Shown piece after piece: positions 1 to 52,297 of a stretch of 64,000 nucleotides of DNA. How positions within the stretch are numbered: the stretch's first letter is position 1; every line of letters starts with the position of its first letter. Made by a program: the position numbers and the translations under genes. The notes below the pieces were generated by a model. The model was not told the origin of the DNA. It worked only from the letters and a program-made list of their open reading frames with translations, and ran no database searches. The DNA comes from Chiloscyllium plagiosum. Lineage: Eukaryota. The DNA lies in the NCBI RefSeq assembly GCF_004010195.1, contig NC_057720.1, positions 41,616,518 through 41,680,517 on the forward strand, given 5' to 3'.

Positions 1-740
1 CCGCAAGAAATGCAAAACTTGCGCCCACACCTCCCCCCTTACTTCCCTCCAAGGCCCCAAGGGATCCTTCCATATCTGCCACAAATTCACCTGCACCTCC
101 ACACACATCATTTACTGCATCCGCTGCACCCGATGTGGCCTCCTCTATATTGGGGAGTCAGGCCGCCTACTTGTGGAACGTTTCAGAGAACACCTCTGGG
201 ACACCCGGACCAACCAACCCAACCACCCCATCGCTCAACATTTCAACTCCCTCTCCCACTCCACCAAGGACATGCAGGTCCTTGGACTCCTCCATCGCCA
301 GACCATAGCAACACGACGGCTGGAGTAAGAGCGCCTCATCCTCCGCCTAGGAACCCTCCAACCACGAGGGATGAACTCAGATTTCTCCAGTTTCCTCATT
401 CCCCCTCCCCCCATCTTGTCTCAGTCCCAACCCTCGGACTCAGCACCACCTTCCTAACCTGCAATCTTCTTCCTGACCTCTCCGCCCCCACCCCCACTCC
501 GGCCTATCACCCTCACCTTAACCTCCTTCCACCTATCGCATTTCCAATGCCCCTCCCCCAAGTCCCTCCTCCCTACCTTTTATCTTAGCCTGCTTGGCAC
601 ATTCTCGTCATTCCTGAAGAAGGGCTCATGCCCGAAACGTCGATTCTCCTGTTCCTTGGATGCTGCCTGACCTGCTGCGTTTTCCAGCAACACATTTTCA
701 GCTCTGATCTCCAGCATCTGCAGTCCTCACTTTCTCCTCC
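1..740 (+). mobile_element. Penelope-like retroelement 3' fragment (GIY-YIG endonuclease remnant plus hammerhead-bearing tail)
   Basis: One frame reads CTSTHIIYCIRCTRCGLLYIGESGRLLVERFREH...HPIAQHFNS...LGTLQPRGMN (GIY-YIG-type, internal stop). CTGAAGA-AGGGC-TCAT-GCCC-GAAACGTC follows at 614-641. The same family recurs at about 33.4-35.9 kb. Confidence 0.85.
614..641 (+). ncRNA. minimal hammerhead ribozyme motif in Penelope tail
   Basis: CUGAAGA core, extra A, stem II GGGC/GCCC, GAAA, palindromic ACGU stem III, GUC cleavage triplet. Confidence 0.7.
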
Positions 741-1419: not shown

Positions 1420-3371
1420 ACTTTGTTCCTCTGAGACAGGCAAGAAGGGGTAAGATAAAGGAACCTTGGATGATGAGAGCGGAAGAGCTTCTTGTCAAAA
1501 GAAAGAAGGCAGCTTACTTAAGGTGGAGGAAGCAAGCGCCTTGCTCAGCTCTAGAGGATTACAGGCAGGCGAGGAAGGAGCTCAAAAATGGTCTGAGGAG
1601 AGCCAGGAAGGGGAACGAAAAAGGCTTGGCAGGAAGGATTAGGGAAAATCCAAAGGCATTTTACACGTATGTGAGGAATAAGAGAATGATCAAAGAAAGA
1701 GTAGGGCCGATCAGGGATAGCATAGGGAACTTGTGTATAGAGTCTGAAGGGGTAGGGGAAGCCCTAGATGAATTTTTGCTTCTGTCTTTATTAAAGAAAA
1801 GGACCTTGTAGTGAATGAAACCATCGAAGAGCAGGTAAGCATGCTGGAACAGATAGAGATTGAGGAAGCTGATGTGTTGAAAATTTTGACAAACATGAAG
1901 ATTGACAAGTCGCCAGGGCCAGACCAGATTTGTCCTCGGCTGCTTTGGGAAACGAGAATTGTGATTGCTTCACCACTTGCGAAGACCTTTGCATCCTCGC
2001 TCTCCACTGAAGTCGTACCTGAGGACTGGAGGGAGGCAAATGTAATTCCTCTCAAGGAAGTAAATAGGGAAATCCCTGGCAATTACAGACCAGTCAGTCT
2101 CACGTCTGTTGTCTGCAAGGCGTTAGAAAGGATTCTGAGGGATAGGATTTATGACCATCTAGAAGAGCATGGCTTGATTAAAGGCAGTCAGCACGGCTTT
2201 ATGAGGTGCAGGTCATGCCTCACAAATCTTATTGAGTTCTTTGAGGATGTTACTAGACAAGTTGATGAGGGTCGAGCAGTGGTTGTGGTGTATATGGGCT
2301 TCAGCAAGGCATTTGATAAGGTTCCCCATGGTAGGCTCGTTCAGAAGGACAGGCGGAATGGGATACAGAGAAATTTAGCTGTCTGGATACAGAATTGGCT
2401 GGTCGACAGAAGACAGCGAGTGGTTGTGGAAGGAAAATATTCTGCCTGGAAGTCAGTGGTGAGTGGTGTTCCACAGGGCTCTGTTCTTGGGCCTCTACTC
2501 TTTGTAATTTTTATTAACGACTTTGATGAGGAGATTGAAGGATGGGTTAGCAAGTTTGCAGACGACACAAAGGTTGGAGGTGTCGTTGACAGTATAGAGG
2601 ACTGTTGTAGGCTGCAGCGTGACATTGACAGGATGGACTGAGAGGTGGCAGATGGAGTTCAACCTGGATAAATGCGAAGTGATGCATTTTGGAAGGAGAG
2701 GGATCTTGGTGTGCAGGTACATAGATCCCTTAAAATTGCCACCCAGGTGGACAGGGTTGTTGGCTTTCATTAACAGGGGGATTGAGTTTAAGAGCCGTGA
2801 GATCTTGTTGCAGTTCTATAAAACTTTGGTTAGACTGCACTTGGAATACTGTGTCCAGTTCTGGTCACCCTATTATAGGAAAAATGTGGATGCTATGGAG
2901 AGGGTTCAGAGGAGCTTTACCAGGATGCTGCCTGGAATGGAGGGCTTATTTTACGAAGAGAGGTTGACTGAGCTCGGACTTTTTTCATTGGAAAAAAGAA
3001 GGAAGAGAGGGGACCCAATTGAGGTGTACAAGATTATGAAAGGCACAGAGAGAGTTGATAGCCAGAAGCTTTTTCCCAGGGCAGAAATTGTTAACACGAG
3101 GGGTCATAGTTTTAAGCTGTTTGGTGGTAAGTATAAAGGGGATGTCAGAGGCGGGTTCTTTACGCAGAGAGTTGTGAGAGCATGGAATGTATTGCCAGCA
3201 GCAATTGTGGAAGCGAGATCATTAGGGATATTTAAGAGACTGCTGGACATGCATATGCTCACAGAAATTTGAGAGTTCGTACATTAGGTTTACCTCACAT
3301 GAGGATCAATGGTTGGCACAACATCATGGGCTGAAGGACCTGTTCTGTGCTGTACTGTTCTATGTTCTATC
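1420..3371 (+). mobile_element. 5'-truncated CR1 LINE (ORF2 reverse transcriptase, frameshifted)
   Basis: ORFs 1811-2641 and 2619-3272 contain KSPGPD, NYRPVSLTS, FSKAFDKVPH, SGVPQGSVLGP, FADDTK and LEYCVQFWSP; ends in a (TTCTATG)n-like tail. Confidence 0.95.
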
Positions 3372-8106: not shown

Positions 8107-8320
8107 CTATTTGAAAAATGTAATAAGTATGAGTCATTTAAACATACATTAAATGGCAAACAGCCTCTCTTCTGCTCCTAGCACCGAAACACATTCTTCT
8201 CCTTGAAAAATGGAAACTAACCTACAATATTAAGATATATCCCCAAGGTCACTTCAGAGTGCAGTTAAGAATCAACCTCGTTGGTGTCGAACTGGAGTAA
8301 CATAGAGGCCACACTAAATA

Positions 8321-9423
8321 AAGTCAAAAGTCACACAACACCAGGTTATAGTCCAACAAGTTTATTTGAAATCACAAGCTTTCAGAGTGCTACTCCTTCA
8401 TGAGGTGAAGTGAAGCAAAGCACACAGGCACAGAACTTATAAGCAGAGAGATCAAAAGGTCATACAAGTGGTGTGAGCGTAGTGTCGACAGGCTGAATAA
8501 TAAGTCTCTGTAGGTGATCAAAAGTGTCAGACAGTGTGAGTAAAGTGTCAACAGCTGAATAGCAAGTGAAAGGATGATCGAAAATCCAACCAATTGAGGC
8601 AGAGATATAATTATAAAAAATTAAAAATAAGGTGGTGTTGGAGACAAACCAAGTAAGTGGAATAACATGATAGGTGTAAGAGTTGCATGCTGAAGGTCTA
8701 AACAAAACAACAAGCAATCCAAACTGTACAAACTAAATTAAGGTAGAGAGATCATAATAAGTTATCAAGGTGATAGTGTCAAAAAATGACAGTAAGGAAG
8801 AATTTACAGATACAGAATAGTATGTCAGGGTTACAAACCCATGAAGATGGCCTCAACTGTGAGCTTGTAGTCATGTTGCGTTATATGTAACCCTGCCATA
8901 CTGTTCTGTATCTGTAAAATCTTCCTTACTGTCGTGTTTTGACACTATCACCTTGATAATTTGTTATGGTCTCCCTACCTTAATTAGTTTGCAGTTTTAG
9001 ATTACTGGTTACTTTGGTTAGACCCTCAGAATACAACTCATACATCTATCATGTTATTCTAGCCATTTGAATTGTCTGCAGTACCTTAGTTTAATTTTTT
9101 TGTAATTATTTCTCTGCCTCAATTAATCGATCATCCTTTCACTTGCTGTTCAGCTGTTGACACTTTACTCATAGTATCTGACACTTTTGATAACCTGCAG
9201 AGACTTATTATTCAGCCTGTCGAGACTCCACTCACACCACTTCTATGGTCTTTTGATTTCTCTCCTTGTAAATTCTGTGCTTGTGTGCTTCTCTTCACTT
9301 CACATGACAAAGGAGCAGCACTCCAAAAGTCTGTAAATTCAAATAAACCTTTTGAACAATAACCTGGTGTTGTGTGACTTCTGACCTTGTCCACCCTAGT
9401 CCAACACCAGCACCTGCACACCA
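8321..9423. mobile_element. Penelope-derived fold-back insertion (two diverged inverted arms of about 500 bp)
   Basis: About 8321-8835 is the diverged reverse complement of about 8886-9390; both arms carry the degenerate hammerhead plus the GGACTATAACCTGGTGTTGTGTGA-type tail. Confidence 0.75.
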
Positions 9424-10720: not shown

Positions 10721-10758
10721 ATTTAAAACTGCCAAGGTGGGATATGAACTCATGTTCT

Positions 10759-11692
10759 GGATGTACGTTTGCTCACTGAGCTGGAAGGTTCATTTCCAGA
10801 CGTTTCGTCACCCTTCTAGGTAACATCTTCAGAGGGCCTCCAGGCGAAGCACTACTGATGAATCCTGCTTTCTATTTATATGTTTGGGTTGGTGATGTCA
10901 TTTCTTGTTCTTTTTCTCAGGGGTAGTAGATGGGGTCTAACTCGATGTGTCTGTTGATAGAGTTCTGGTTGGAATGCCATGCTTCTAGGAATTCTCGAAC
11001 GTGTCTCTGTTTGGCTTGTCCTAGGTTGATGTATTGTCCCAGTTGAAGTGGTGTCCTTCTTTATCTGTATGTTGGGATACTAGTGAGAGAGGGTCATATC
11101 ATTTCGTGGCTAGTTGATGTTCATGTATCCTGGTGGCTAGTTTTCTTGCATGGTATTTTGTAATTGAACAGCAGCTAATGAACTTGAAAGACCCTATACA
11201 GACAACAAGCAAAACTAATGTAAGTGTAACAAACACAACATTGGACAAACAGACAGAAAACTAGCCACCAGGATACATAAGCATCAACTAGCCACGAAAC
11301 GACATGACCCTCTCTCACTAGTATTCTTGCATACAGAAAAGGAAGGGCACCACTTTGACTGGGACAACACATCCATCCTAGGACAAGCCAAACAGAGACA
11401 CACACAAGAATTCCTAGAAGCATGGCATTCCCGCAGAACTCTATGAACAAACACATCGAGTTAAACTCCATTCACACCCCCTCCAAGAAAAAGAACAGGA
11501 AATGACATCGCCAACCCAAATAAATCCAACATATAAATAGAAAGCAGGAATCATCAGCAGTGCTTCGCCCGGAAGCCCACTGAAGACGTTACCTAGTAGG
11601 GTGACGAAACATCTGGAATGAACCTTCTAGCTCAGTGAGCAAACCTACATCCAGAACCTCAACCTGAGCTACAAATCTTCTCAAATCTCGCT
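10759..11692 (+). mobile_element. Penelope element with inverted 5' arm, GIY-YIG remnant and 12-bp TSD
   Basis: The + arm encodes IGQTDRKLATRIHKHQ...HHFDWDNTSIL...EAWHS. 10754-11150 is inverted relative to about 11255-11657. AACTCATGTTCT occurs at 10747-10758 and 11693-11704. Confidence 0.88.
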
Positions 11693-21156: not shown

Positions 21157-21218
21157 AGCAATCCCGACAGGCAAAGCGCCACCTCAGTCGGTACTTGCGG
21201 GTGAGCCCCAAAACCCCA

Positions 21219-21368
21219 CGGCCGGGCAGACTCTCCAGTAATAGCGCCCCCCGCGGCCGGGCAGACTCTCCAGTAATAGCGCCCCCCGCGGCCGGGCAGA
21301 CTCTCGGTAATAGCGCCCCCCGCGGCCGGGCAGACTTTCCGGTAATAGCGCCCCCTGCGGCCGGGCAG
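21219..21368. repeat. 35-bp tandem repeat, about 4.3 copies
   Basis: Unit CGGCCGGGCAGACTCTCCAGTAATAGCGCCCCCCG with 0-3 differences per copy. Confidence 0.95.
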
Positions 21369-26850: not shown

Positions 26851-27515
26851 GATAATTTTAGGAAAGGGAGGAGAAATAATTAAATTAAAAATACAAAAGT
26901 GGAAGTGGAAAAGCATCATGGCAATTTTGAAATACATTATACAATGCTGGGTTTTTGGGTGCTGTGTTTATTCAAGATGTCATCTGTCTTTATCCTTGGT
27001 GTTGAATATGTTTATATCATTGCTTTAGATTCCTGTGATGCAGTGGTAAGACCCCTATCTCTGAGCCAGAAAGATCAACACATCTGAGCAAGTTGATTTA
27101 TCACTGAGCACAAGGCATCAAAATTGAATATTTAGACCTACTTATTTGAGTTAACAAATCTTGCTGGTAGGGCATTATGGAAACATCTATTGCTATTTGA
27201 AATAGACATGGGATCTTATTCATCCACGTGAAACAGCACAGATGGCCTTGGATTAACATAATTTCTGAAAGATGCGTCTCTGACAATACAGAGGTCTTCA
27301 GTGCTGCACGGGAATGACAACCACAGTTTTAAGCTCAAGTCTTTGGAGTTGAACATAGTCTTCTGACTGTGATAAAAGTCCCATTGACTGAGCCATGACT
27401 GACACTTTGCCTATGTTTTAATTGTATAATGTATTTCAAAATTGCCACGGTGCTTTTCCACTTTCACTTTTGTATTTTTAATTTAATTATTTTTCCTCCC
27501 TTTCCTAAAATTATC
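26851..27515. repeat. 95-bp AT-rich inverted repeat (26851-26945 / 27421-27515)
   Basis: Arms are reverse complements with about 4 mismatches. Confidence 0.9.
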
Positions 27516-33858: not shown

Positions 33859-34360
33859 ATTATAATATGATAATGAAAACAGAAAATGCTGGGAATGATC
33901 TGGAAATCGGGCAGCCTAAAGGCATTTTTGGAGAGACTATTAATGTTTCAGAACAATGAACTCATTACTGGAAGGAGGATTGAAGTACAGTTACTCACTT
34001 GATTAAGCTTTTTTAAGAACTAAAGAGGGTTAACGAGGACAGAGCAACAGATGTGATCTATGTGAACTTCAGTAAGGTGTTCGACAAGATTCCCCATGGG
34101 AGACTCGTTAGATCTCATGGAATACAAGAAAAACTAGCCATTTGGATACAGAACTGGCTCGAAGATAGAAGACAGAGGGTGGTGGTGGAGAGTTATTTTT
34201 CAGATTGGAGGTCTGTGACCAGTAGAGTACCACAAGGATTGCTGCTCGGTTCACTACTTTTCGTCATTTATATAAATGATTTGGATGTGAACATAGGTTT
34301 AGTTAGTAAGTTTGCAGATGACACCAAAATTAGAGGTGTAGTGGACAGTGAGAAAGGTTA

Positions 34361-35865
34361 GAGCTGAAAATGTGTTGCTGGAAAAACGCAGCAGGTCAGG
34401 CAGCATCCAAGGAGCAGGAGAATCGACGTTTTGGGCATGAGCCCTTCTTCAGGAATGAGGAAAGTGTGTCCAGCAGGCTAAGATAAAAGGTAGGGAGGAG
34501 GGACTTGGGGGAGGGGCGTTGGAAATGCTTTCCCCTCCCCCCCCTCGAAATCAGCACCGCCTTCCTAACCTGCAATCTTCTTCCTGACCTCTCCGCCCCC
34601 ACNNNNNNNNNNNNNNNNNNNNNNNNNNNNNNNNNNNNNNNNNNNNNNNNNNNNNNNNNNNNNNNNNNNNNNNNNNNNNNNNNNNNNNNNNNNNNNNNNN
34701 NNNNNNNNNNNNNNNNNNNNNNNNNNNNNNNNNNNNNNNNNNNNNNNNNNNNNNNNNNNNNNNNNNNNNNNNNNNNNNNNNNNNNNNNNNNNNNNNNNNN
34801 NNNNNNNNNNNNNNNNNNNNNNNNNNNNNNNNNNNNNNNNNNNNNNNNNNNNNNNNNNNNNNNNNNNNNNNNNNNNNNNNNNNNNNNNNNNNNNNNNNNN
34901 NNNNNNNNNNNNNNNNNNNNNNNNNNNNNNNNNNNNNNNNNNNNNNNNNNNNNNNNNNNNNNNNNNNNNNNNNNNNNNNNNNNNNNNNNNNNNNNNNNNN
35001 NNNNNNNNNNNNNNNNNNNNNNNNNNNNNNNNNNNNNNNNNNNNNNNNNNNNNNNNNNNNNNNNNNNNNNNNNNNNNNNNNNNNNNNNNNNNNNNNNNNN
35101 NNNNNNNNNNNNNNNNNNNNNNNNNNNNNNNNNNNNNNNNNNNNNNNNNNNNNNNNNNNNNNNNNNNNNNNNNNNNNNNNNNNNNNNNNNNNNNNNNNNN
35201 NNNNNNNNNNNNNNNNNNNNNNNNNNNNNNNNNNNNNNNNNNNNNNNNNNNNNNNNNNNNNNNNNNNNNNNNNNNNNNNNNNNNNNNNNNNNNNNNNNNN
35301 NNNNNNNNNNNNNNNNNNNNNNNNNNNNNNNNNNNNNNNNNNNNNNNNNNNNNNNNNNNNNNNNNNNNNNNNNNNNNNNNNNNNNNNNNNNNNNNNNNNN
35401 NNNNNNNNNNNNNNNNNNNNNNNNNNNNNNNNNNNNNNNNNNNNNNNNNNNNNNNNNNNNNNNNNNNNNNNNNNNNNNNNNNNNNNNNNNNNNNNNNNNN
35501 NNNNNNNNNNNNNNNNNNNNNNNNNNNNNNNNNNNNNNNNNNNNNNNNNNNNNNNNNAAACTCAGCACCGCCTTCCTAACCTGCAATCTTCTTCCTGACC
35601 TCTCCGCCCCCACTCCCACTCTGGCCTATCACCCTCAACTTGACCTCCTTCCACCTATCGCATTTCCAACGCCCCTCCCCCAAGTCCCTCCTTCCTACCT
35701 TTTATCTTAGCCTGCTGGACACACTTTCCTCATTCCTGAAGAAGGGCTCATGCCCAAAACGTTGATTCTCCTGCTCCTTGGATGCTGCCTGACCTGCTGT
35801 GCTTTTCCAGCAACACATTTTCAGCTCTGATCTCCAGCATCTGCAGTCCTCACTTTCTTCTCCAC
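34361..35865. mobile_element. fold-back Penelope insertion with 12-bp TSD, spanning the gap
   Basis: TGAGAAAGGTTA at 34349-34360 and 35866-35877; the left arm is the reverse complement of the right-arm tail. Confidence 0.85.
34603..35558. other. assembly gap (956 N)
   Basis: Run of N. Confidence 1.
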
Positions 35866-49591: not shown

Positions 49592-51072
49592 GTACATAAT
49601 TAAATGCTATGTTGACATGACTTGATTGAGATTATTTACTTTAGAAAAGTACATTTTACTATACAGTGTTCCTTCGGTGATTTCCAGTTTGAATTTGGTG
49701 AAATGTTTCATGTGTCTGTTGAATTGTTGTTGGTGCTCAACTTGTGTTCTCCCATTTTCTCCTCTTCTCTCTTGATAAGATTTTTAGAGCATTGTATTAA
49801 TGGGCTTGTCACCTCCAGTGAATTAGGATTGGTTCTTTGATGGCCAAGAATCCCCTTCATATCCTTGTGCTTTTTCCTGTTATGCGTGTGGCCTATTGGT
49901 CTATCCTCTAAGGCCCTATTACCGCTGCAAAGAAACTCTGAAAAAGAAGTTGTTTTAGGGAGAAGCACTGGAAATACCAGTCAATTGTGTCAGGAAGCAA
50001 GTGTGCCTCAACAAGAAATCTTAAATCTTGCCAAATATTATTTTTGTGTACTTAATTGATTCAACTGACAAGAAATACTGTCCAACTGCTGAAATCCTCA
50101 GTTGTGCTATTGCTTTTTCAGATTTAACAATTATGGCGCTCTTTTGGCTGGTCTTCCATTTTCCTTCAGACAATTTAGGTTTTGCTGGTTCATAAAGCAC
50201 TTAATGTCCATTTCTAATTGCACTTGAGAAGGTATTGGTGCCTTCTTGAAATGTTGCAGTTCATGTTGTAAGTATACTGCAGAGCAGTCAGAGAAGAAGT
50301 TCCAGGATTTTAACCCATAGGCAGTGAAGGACAATATATTTCTAAGTCAAGGATAATTTATGGCTTGGGGGTGATGTTATCATACATCTGTTGCTCTTGT
50401 CCTGGAGAAGTTGCAGATTTGGAAGATGTTGTCGAAAGAGATTCAGTGATGGTGGTTCCATTGAATGTCAAAGGGCAACTGTCAAATTTTCTCTTATTGG
50501 ATTTGGCCATTTCCTGACACTTTTGTGGTGTGAGTGTGACTTGCCACTTATCAGCTTAAGCCTGAATGCCATCCAAATCTTGTTGCATTTGGACCAGGAG
50601 TGCTTCAGTGTATGAAGCCGTGAATAGTGCTGAACATTCTGCAATCACCAATGAATATTGCCATATCTGACCTTTAGGGTGGAAGGAAAGTTATTGACGA
50701 AGGTTGTTAAGCCTCGAACTACATTGAGGAACTCATGCAGTGATACCCTGTGCCTGAGATGATTGAACTCCAATGTGCCAATCCTCCGATGTGCTAGGTT
50801 TAACTGCTTCTGCTGGACAGTTTGTCCTTTGAGTCCCGTCGGTTTCTGATGTGCACGGGCTCCATAATTCCTCTATATCGAGGCAAGTAGCCCTCGCTTT
50901 TCCTCAAGTTCAGTTCCTCTGTCCATATTTAGTTTTGAGATAGTAATTAGGTCAGGAGTTGAGTGACCCTAGTAGACACCCTACTGAGCATCATTGAGCA
51001 GCTTGTCGCTTAGTAAGTGCCTGTTGATAGACTGGCTGGCATAAATAATGCTGGAGGTCTTAGGAGGGCAAG

Positions 51073-51716
51073 TGTGGTGAAAGGGTTAAAATTGTGTCCC
51101 AATACATGTGTGAATCTAACCGAAAATGGAAGGTGTCGCTTAGTCCCGTGTGAATCTTATTACACACCTTCCCGTGTGAATCTTCTTATCTGTATGTGAC
51201 CAGAATGGAATGTGTTTTTCAGCCTTGCTCTGCTGTTCACATGAATGTTTAGATCTCGAAAAGAGTATATCAGCTGGAAAAGTCTCCAGTTCGGTAGAGT
51301 CTGCTCCGGGTCTGGTTTATACTCACTCTACGTGTTACCGGAACTGGGAGCCGTCAGTTCTCTTAGAGCGGTTGCCAACAACCCACGCTCAGCGGTTAAA
51401 CGCAACCCCGGAGCAGACTCTACCGAACTGGAGACTTTTCCAGCTGATATACTCTTTTCGAGATCTAAACATTCATGTGAACAGCAGAGCAAGGCTGAAA
51501 AACACATTCCATTCTGGTCACATACAGATAAGAAGATTCACACGGGAAGGTGTGTAATAAGATTCACACGGGACTAAGCGACACCTTCCATTTTCGGTTA
51601 GATTCACACATGTATTGGGACACAATTTTAACCCTTTCACCACATTCCACTGCTTGGCCCAATACATGTGTTACATTATGATTCACACATGTATTGGGAC
51701 ATAATTTTACACCACA
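51073..51716. mobile_element. unclassified 644-bp TG...CA palindromic element with 5-bp TSD
   Basis: GCAAG at 51068-51072 and 51717-51721; termini TGTGGTG / CACCACA; perfect 238-bp inverted repeat 51073-51310 / 51407-51644. Confidence 0.85.
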
Positions 51717-51764
51717 GCAAGATAGGTCATCCACTTGGTATTTAGTCATAGTTATACAGAATGA

Positions 51765-51995
51765 AGCTTTTCCCTCTAAACCACCTGCTTCTTTTCTTAA
51801 AAATGTGTCCCACTTGTTAATTGACCCCTCTGCTAAGAGGAAAGATTTCTCCTTGTCATTCTTGTCTATGCCCCTCAGAACTTTGTACACCTCGATCAGG
51901 TAGCCCCCTTAGCCTTCTCTCCTAGAAGGAAAACAACCCCAGCCTACCTAATTTGTCTTCATAGCCAAATAAGTCCTCATAGGCAACATCCTGGT
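51765..51995 (-). mobile_element. CR1 3' coding remnant
   Basis: Minus frame reads LIEVYKVLRGIDK. Confidence 0.7.
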
Positions 51996-52297
51996 GAAAA
52001 AAAACTGAAAGATCTATGATTTTGGAAATCAAAATCACAAACAGAATTTGCTGGAAAAACTCAAAGTTTTCAGGGTGAAAGTCTCATCTTCCACCTTCTG
52101 TAAGGTTGAGCTCATCCCATATGTTGCTGTGATATTAGTATTGTGCATACCTGTGCTTCAGGTCTACCCACCTGTCCCAATTTAACAATGTTATTAGTTC
52201 TTTGGGATAAGAATATAATTGATCAGTTATAATTTGAAAGTTTCAAGTGACTGAAATTGCAGGTTATGTTGCCAATAACTTCCTTTCTGTGCTACAG

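Follow-up and report, generated by a model that had tools for sequence, protein, structure and literature searches.

Locus and Host Intron

The window analysed here, a 64-kb stretch of the Chiloscyllium plagiosum genome, carries two gene loci that lie head to head: exons of the PRPF38 (PRP38) family on the minus strand, near 19-21 kb of the window (about 19.4-21.2 kb), and exons of ORC1 on the plus strand (about 28-54 kb), in which BAH, AAA, lid and winged-helix domains were found. We take this layout to be that of PRPF38A and ORC1 in other vertebrates. Directly upstream of the first PRP38 exon found, in what is likely a shared promoter region, lies a GC-rich tandem array (21214-21368) made of 4.5 copies of a 35-bp unit that are 95% alike.

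The insertion described below is hosted by a plus-strand ORC1 intron of 2706 bp (49592-52297), delimited by its GT...AG splice sites and by the peptides of the adjoining exons. This intron sits between an AAA-lid exon and a winged-helix exon (Pfam AAA_lid_10, Cdc6_lid and Cdc6_C), and one of the exons upstream matches ORC1 chains in PDB (E 2e-27). To the left of the insertion lies a decayed reverse-transcriptase fragment of a non-LTR retrotransposon (LINE) on the minus strand (50439-51037), recognised with named LINE proteins of sharks and amphioxus as tblastn queries (best E about 1e-20); LINE reverse transcriptase makes up the left flank until about 30-40 bp from the flanking duplication (TSD). 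For a better-kept relative located at 60.6-61.0 kb, an HMMER search gave proteins of whale shark and sawshark as the best named matches, in support of a shark-like host. When the element and one TSD copy are removed in silico, an open frame crosses the junction of the resulting virtual empty site. The junction peptide may resemble the linker upstream of the reverse transcriptase in shark LINEs; aligned to two amphioxus LINE proteins, it scored no better than shuffles (p = 0.25 and 0.93). No LINE copy spanning the insertion site is present in the window, and the named shark proteins stop short of this region. Other LINE reverse-transcriptase copies are located at 1772-3269, 15.7-17.0 kb, 35.8-41.8 kb and 63.0-64.0 kb, some of them 90-98% alike, including three within ORC1 introns at intervals of about 2.6 kb.

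Architecture of the Insertion

The whole element measures 644 bp and consists of a 572-bp palindromic core followed, at its right, by a 72-bp extension. The left arm of the core is a 238-bp TIR that starts with TGTGG (51073-51310, plus strand), and the right arm (51407-51644, minus strand), which keeps an intact inner terminus, is its exact reverse complement (0/238 mismatches by self-comparison); the pairing cannot be extended by a single base, either inward or outward. Between the arms lies a unique, unstranded spacer of 96 nt (51311-51406) that is rich in CpG (7 CpG, observed/expected 1.09) and folds only marginally (z = -1.9, with 6/200 shuffles as good). A motif scan places a TATAAA hexamer in this spacer, near 51321 on the minus strand, and reports neither AATAAA nor ATTAAA on either strand of the element. 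The extension (51645-51716, minus strand) carries a third, outer right terminus and a hairpin with a 14-bp stem (z = -4.9, 1/200 shuffles as good). Outside both outer ends stands GCAAG, at 51068-51072 and at 51717-51721, neither copy having an assigned strand. The first-pass annotation had described this arrangement of perfect inverted repeat, spacer, hairpin-bearing extension and paired GCAAG, and each part lies where it had been placed.

Each of the three termini reads TGTGG inward, which fits the pattern TGTNR. No separate duplication encloses the inner 572-bp palindrome, as its left flank ends in GCAAG and its right flank begins with TTCCA. The inner right terminus stops exactly at the element's first base, with no flank copied. 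The outer right end is a near copy of the left end: once a single 7-bp gap is introduced, the two agree at 36 positions out of 37 and differ by 1 substitution. Additionally, a 10-bp subterminal motif occurs in three direct copies per arm (at 51108, 51148 and 51174 in the left arm) and once more in the extension, and the left arm contains a small internal 9-bp inverted pair (51127-51135 and 51163-51171).

The extension is largely a patchwork, in which 51 out of 72 nt trace back to the arm's terminal 44 bp. A 14-bp stretch of these recurs in inverted form at 51658-51671, another of 30 bp is repeated with 1 mismatch at 51680-51709, and the arm's terminal heptamer closes the extension at 51710-51716. 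The remaining 21 nt have no match to the core above chance (random stretches do equally well in 99% and 87% of trials), and no part of the extension derives from the flanks, the longest flank match being 6 nt. Across the junction of arm and extension (51641-51649, plus strand), 9 bases repeat 51503-51511 of the right arm. This direct repeat, which has a chance probability of about 0.01 and was spotted post hoc, is a possible slippage microhomology and is treated here as a hint only.

Controls Against Chance

The inverted repeat stands far outside the background of the window. The fold of the element reaches z = -51.7, a value attained by 0/20 shuffles, and the next-longest perfect inverted repeat in the 64 kb is 69 bp, the longest perfect direct repeat being 65 bp. 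Two random 5-mers of the window match with P = 0.0014, a probability that about doubles given two possible right ends. The signature of TG...CA ends plus TSD needed a control of its own, because 30 segments of the window pass by a 7-bp end match. Specifically, a scan of the whole window for a 7-bp TG...CA end match together with a 4-6-bp flanking duplication yields these 30 segments, 4 of them with a 5-bp duplication, and among those 4 only the element at 51068-51721 has ends that stay homologous for more than about 8 nt. All other TG...CA candidates of the scan, save two matches inside the element, were judged to be chance matches or parts of other repeats.

Coding Capacity and Sequence Searches

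The element was said to encode no recognisable protein, and this is borne out by the four stop-free frames of at least 72 aa that overlap it, none of which has a Pfam match at E <= 0.001. The longest of them, a 125-aa open frame across the spacer, has no homologue among 3 candidates and reaches a sub-threshold Pfam score (E 0.09). Within the window as a whole, the domain scan covered 146 of the 160 stop-free frames of at least 72 aa and returned no transposase, integrase or LTR-type domain. Likewise, self-comparison of the 64 kb found no second copy of the element, and the longer or further copies envisaged by the first-pass annotation are absent from this stretch.

Searches of larger collections gave a similar picture. 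The element matches none of 72,556 plasmid and 50,697 phage records, and a 22-nt terminal motif has no exact match in GTDB genomes. These collections are mostly prokaryotic and uninformative on copy number in the shark; the blanks therefore argue against a prokaryotic origin. Rfam gave 0 matches in the window at the gathering score, the best local match reaching 21 bits (E 0.2) where 98 would be needed. No description of such an element is among the matches listed by literature searches, and it may already be catalogued as an unclassified repeat; none of the literature consulted reports, for any vertebrate, the combination of TG...CA ends with long TIRs and a TSD of 5 bp.

Relative Age

The element had been called young, an attribute that holds in relative terms, whereas the absolute bound is loose. 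The absence of differences over 238 bp bounds divergence at 0.63% per arm (95%). With 7e-10 mutations per base in each generation, this equals about 9 million generations; the rate, possibly of another species, is that given for the epaulette shark (95% CI 1.4-14.1e-10; PMC10587355). Arm-to-arm conversion would loosen this bound further. The evidence for relative youth comes from base composition and from the neighbourhood. CpG observed/expected is 0.69 in the element vs. 0.30 for the window, its unique CpG number 14 where 4.7 are expected (p = 4e-4), and 2.5% of 1255 same-size window tiles, the element itself included, are equally CpG-rich. The other fold-backs of the window have decayed to about 81% arm identity. 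Because CpG has been kept here and those fold-backs stand at about 81%, the sequence supports an element younger than its neighbours, with relative youth as the extent of the claim.

These neighbours also put the fold-back structure into perspective: it is real in our element, but long fold-backs are not rare in the window, where decayed insertions of about 1070 and 900 bp occupy 8320-9388 and 10754-11657. The former ends in a repeat that is present five times in the window (family D16) and that we take to be Penelope-like; a GIY-YIG domain is found at window positions 2-325. A further structure at 26851-27515 has AT-rich 95-bp inverted arms, 96% alike and 475 bp apart, with neither TG...CA ends nor an evident TSD, and a middle that by its look is presumably a SINE piece. 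It may have arisen as an inverted duplication by template switching, or be a further small TIR element.

Origin of the Insertion

We favour, with moderate confidence, a non-autonomous TIR DNA element with a MITE-like core of 572 bp, moved in trans by an integrase-type DDE enzyme. This reading draws on the exact arms, the termini, the TSD, the repeated subterminal motifs near every end, the lack of a canonical poly(A) signal and the retained CpG. DNA-transposon ends commonly carry repeated subterminal sites. The notion of a non-autonomous insertion with an integrase-type footprint, already put forward in the first-pass annotation, gains from the occurrence of TGTNR at all three ends and from the precedent that TDD-4/5 set for a 5-bp TSD combined with long TIRs (PMC2836005). 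Weighing against it are the single copy in 64 kb, which leaves n = 1 as the basis for both TSD length and family structure; the lack of a transposase or integrase in the 146 of 160 window frames scanned; a target site that matches neither metazoan Ginger1 nor Ginger2; the rarity of three-TIR elements, with 13 among about 28,000 tomato MULE copies (PMC3310237); and 21 bases of the extension left without explanation.

Mechanistically, a DDE transposase of integrase type, supplied in trans, would bind at the subterminal motifs and, after cleavage at the CA-3' ends, join these to the target with a 5-bp stagger, which would create the GCAAG pair. The extension would then be an error-prone, patched re-copy of the right end. 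In the simplest route, the 572-bp unit would insert first, and slippage or templated repair would subsequently add the 72-bp patch beyond the former terminus, ahead of the TSD, so that the arms would be identical while the outer end is ragged. Alternatively, patching may have taken place in a donor copy, the 644-bp form then moving by its outer ends, with the same sequence as a result. As for the identity of the arms, the family may be recent on a slow clock, or arm pairing may keep converting the arms.

A possible, though on balance doubtful, alternative is a rearranged solo LTR or LTR-end product of a Gypsy, BEL or ERV-like element. On this view, the ends and the TSD would be the work of LTR integrase; the palindrome would stem from a single copying-back of the U3 end, either when reverse transcription ran off a linear end or through template switching at a later time; and the 72-bp piece would represent either a duplicated U3 terminus or the other LTR end proper. 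By prior odds, TG...CA ends with a 5-bp TSD at such a length more often belong to a solo LTR. The size of 400-650 bp is that of solo LTRs, and short direct repeats such as those in the arm could be enhancer repeats; the end repeats usual for LTRs, in turn, are short. Set against this last point is the likeness of the outer ends over 37 aligned bases. The motif scan for a U3-R-U5 layout is divided, as the one TATAAA on the minus strand of the spacer would suit an LTR and the lack of AATAAA and ATTAAA on both strands would not; nor did the 146 of 160 window frames that were scanned contain an LTR-type protein domain. The ends themselves agree with an LTR, as LTR elements and retroviruses make TSDs of 3-6 bp (PMC10045372), most often of 5 bp (PMC6839031), and share TGTNR ends, the motif of both Ginger and Gypsy (PMC2836005). 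Abundance points in the same direction, with 1787 Gypsy vs. 19 Ginger sequences among the fish consensus sequences of FishTEDB (PMC6404401). Against this, the fish palindromes treated in the consulted part of PMC4255032 are described there as MITE-like only.

It is improbable that the palindrome arose by self-nesting, or by alternative-end transposition, within a family with asymmetric ends, i.e., a long left end and a short right end whose 37-bp TIR is imperfect. In such a scenario, the right end of one copy would have received another in opposite orientation, the middle would have been deleted, the palindrome would be private to this locus, and the enzyme could belong to Ginger2/Tdd or to an unclassified superfamily with a 5-bp TSD. 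The inner terminus is indeed joined cleanly to new sequence, like a strand-transfer junction, and the contrast between an outer right end that differs by a 7-bp gap and 1 substitution and arms that differ by nothing suits an older, separately evolved right end. Alternative transposition reportedly gives such rearrangements in Ac/Ds. Nested insertion with loss of the inner TSD has, moreover, been named as a possible source of extra TIRs (PMC3310237). However, two events are needed, an insertion and a deletion, the spacer junction shows no left partner of an inner TSD, and the extension looks pieced together from the terminal 44 bp next to it.

Equally little weight is given to the proposal that the insertion is real and its perfect palindrome is partly a product of assembly, similar arms of a multi-copy family having been collapsed or a longer interior dropped. 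In its favour, the assembly contains a gap of 955 N (34603-35557) whose flanking inverted pair resembles a fold-back at the end of a contig; exact identity reaches no further than 69 bp in any other repeat pair of the window; and homogenisation could hide a few arm differences. The inverted pair around the gap (34355-35833; 174 bp, 97%) may itself be a contig-end assembly artefact. Yet the gap is 15.5 kb away from the element, which contains no N; the 96-bp spacer is unique; the second arm breaks off at the very terminus and includes no flank; and the unique extension, TSD and flank beyond it all lie within the length of one read. A simple fold-back artefact, we infer, would yield none of these unique junction features.

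Implications

If the favoured TIR element belongs to a family, cartilaginous fishes can readily be probed with its ends for a DNA transposon of the integrase type. In its boldest form, which we consider rather unlikely, the locus represents an undescribed and possibly mobile shark family with the 572-bp palindrome as its miniature, moved by a retroviral-type integrase with a 5-bp stagger; it would be either the first vertebrate lineage akin to TDD/Ginger2 or a pair of copied-back LTR ends that borrow the integrase of an LTR retroelement. Interest in the Ginger elements stems from their place as the link between cut-and-paste transposons and LTR elements (PMC2836005). Additionally, the locus keeps a terminal duplication in a readable state, and the process behind such duplications was left open for MULEs (PMC3310237). 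As for the host gene, a perfect 238-bp inverted repeat with a short spacer within an ORC1 intron is predicted to be capable of forming double-stranded pre-mRNA, as a duplex of 238 bp, or of being unstable, and in yeast both the closeness and the identity of arms raise instability (PMC10164571). Should the insertion be a single rearranged relic, it matters little.

Comparison With Known Systems

Among described elements, TDD-4/5 of Dictyostelium (Ginger2/Tdd) would be the nearest model, by analogy. These have 5-bp TSDs and TIRs of 260 and 297 bp, and share with the shark element the TGTNR ends, the length of the TSD and long TIRs, of 238 bp here (PMC2836005). In contrast, TDD-4/5 are 3.8 kb long, encode an integrase-like transposase and reside in an amoeba, whereas the present element is a 644-bp, non-coding, three-ended insertion in a shark, the two being compared by description only. 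Measured against Ginger2/Tdd in general, the termini fit TGTNR and the 238-bp TIR falls within the range of 45-297 bp (Table 2 in PMC2836005), while the 5-bp GCAAG, known from n = 1 site, fits TDD-4/5 and fails the RTATAY pattern of animals.

Metazoan Ginger1 and Ginger2 likewise have TGTNR ends, TIRs of about 40-270 bp and non-autonomous derivatives, e.g., Ginger2-1N1_NV (252 bp), but their TSDs are 4 bp long, CCGG or CCGT in Ginger1 and at AT-rich RTATAY in animal Ginger2, as opposed to the 5-bp GCAAG found here (PMC2836005). Ginger1 is excluded on this ground (PMC2836005). Elsewhere the TSD of Ginger2 is given as 4 or 5 bp, next to 6 bp for Polinton and 3-6 bp for LTR elements (PMC10045372), or as 6 bp (PMC6839031). 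The element is not filed as Ginger because metazoan Ginger1 and Ginger2 make 4-bp TSDs and because it has no transposase. The suffix DR in the names of Ginger elements we take to denote zebrafish, so that Ginger1 presumably reaches fish. In the supplementary alignment of PMC10045372, a study that states the use of 30 Ginger2 and 23 Ginger1 entries, at least 21 names are Ginger1, two of them ending in DR (Ginger1-1_DR and Ginger1-2_DR), and at least 24 are Ginger2, none with a suffix recognised as vertebrate. For cartilaginous fish, the consulted part of PMC3424704 reports only the domesticated GIN2 gene.

The doubled right terminus, flagged in the first-pass annotation, is present but not unprecedented. 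MULE TSDs are 8-10 bp long. Among 61 multi-TIR elements of tomato MULEs, out of about 28,000 copies, 13 have one extra solo TIR (type 3), mostly as single copies, and slippage, recombination and nesting were proposed as origins of the extra TIRs (PMC3310237). Type 3 elements have in common with the shark element non-autonomy, an extra tandem terminus at one end and a TSD on the outside only; they differ in superfamily, in their plant hosts and in the size of the extra TIRs, which are at least 100 bp there, as opposed to a 72-bp patchwork here (PMC3310237). By analogy, they may serve as a precedent for an extension arising from slippage.

DIRS1-type elements, Helitrons and Cryptons are not known to make a TSD, and the internal region of DIRS1 is complementary to its own ends; these three are ruled out by the 5-bp TSD and by a spacer that has no match to the termini in self-comparison. 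Solo LTRs (Gypsy, BEL, Copia, ERV) share TG...CA ends, a 5-bp TSD, size and lack of coding capacity with the element, whose TSD falls within their 3-6-bp range (PMC10045372). They are set apart by the absence here of a canonical poly(A) signal, by ends alike over 37 bp and by one perfect inverted repeat that makes up 74% of the length. Transib and RAG-like elements have a 5-bp TSD too, but their ends begin with CAC and carry an RSS-like heptamer and nonamer, in place of TGT (PMC1131882). Vertebrate Polinton/Maverick elements were rejected despite their integrase and TIRs of 46-1447 bp, given their AG/AGT repeat ends and 6-bp TSD (PMC8097293), and IS3EU/GingerRoot was rejected for its 6-bp TSD and ends that are mostly TA...TA, the TSD here being 5 bp with a differing sixth base (PMC6839031; PMC10045372). 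IS481EU fits by its TGT...ACA ends, and the 5-bp TSD is near the shortest of its classes (near 4, 15 or 25 bp), but its host group, the parabasalids, does not fit (PMC10045372). Palindromic, MITE-like insertions are also described in the coelacanth, with other TSDs (PMC4255032).

Taken by analogy, the shark element would work like a TDD-type miniature, and it may or may not belong to Ginger2/Tdd. Its kind is known, both as a non-autonomous TIR element and as one with an extra solo terminus; what is new is the combination of these ends with this TIR length and this TSD in a vertebrate, seen in one copy.
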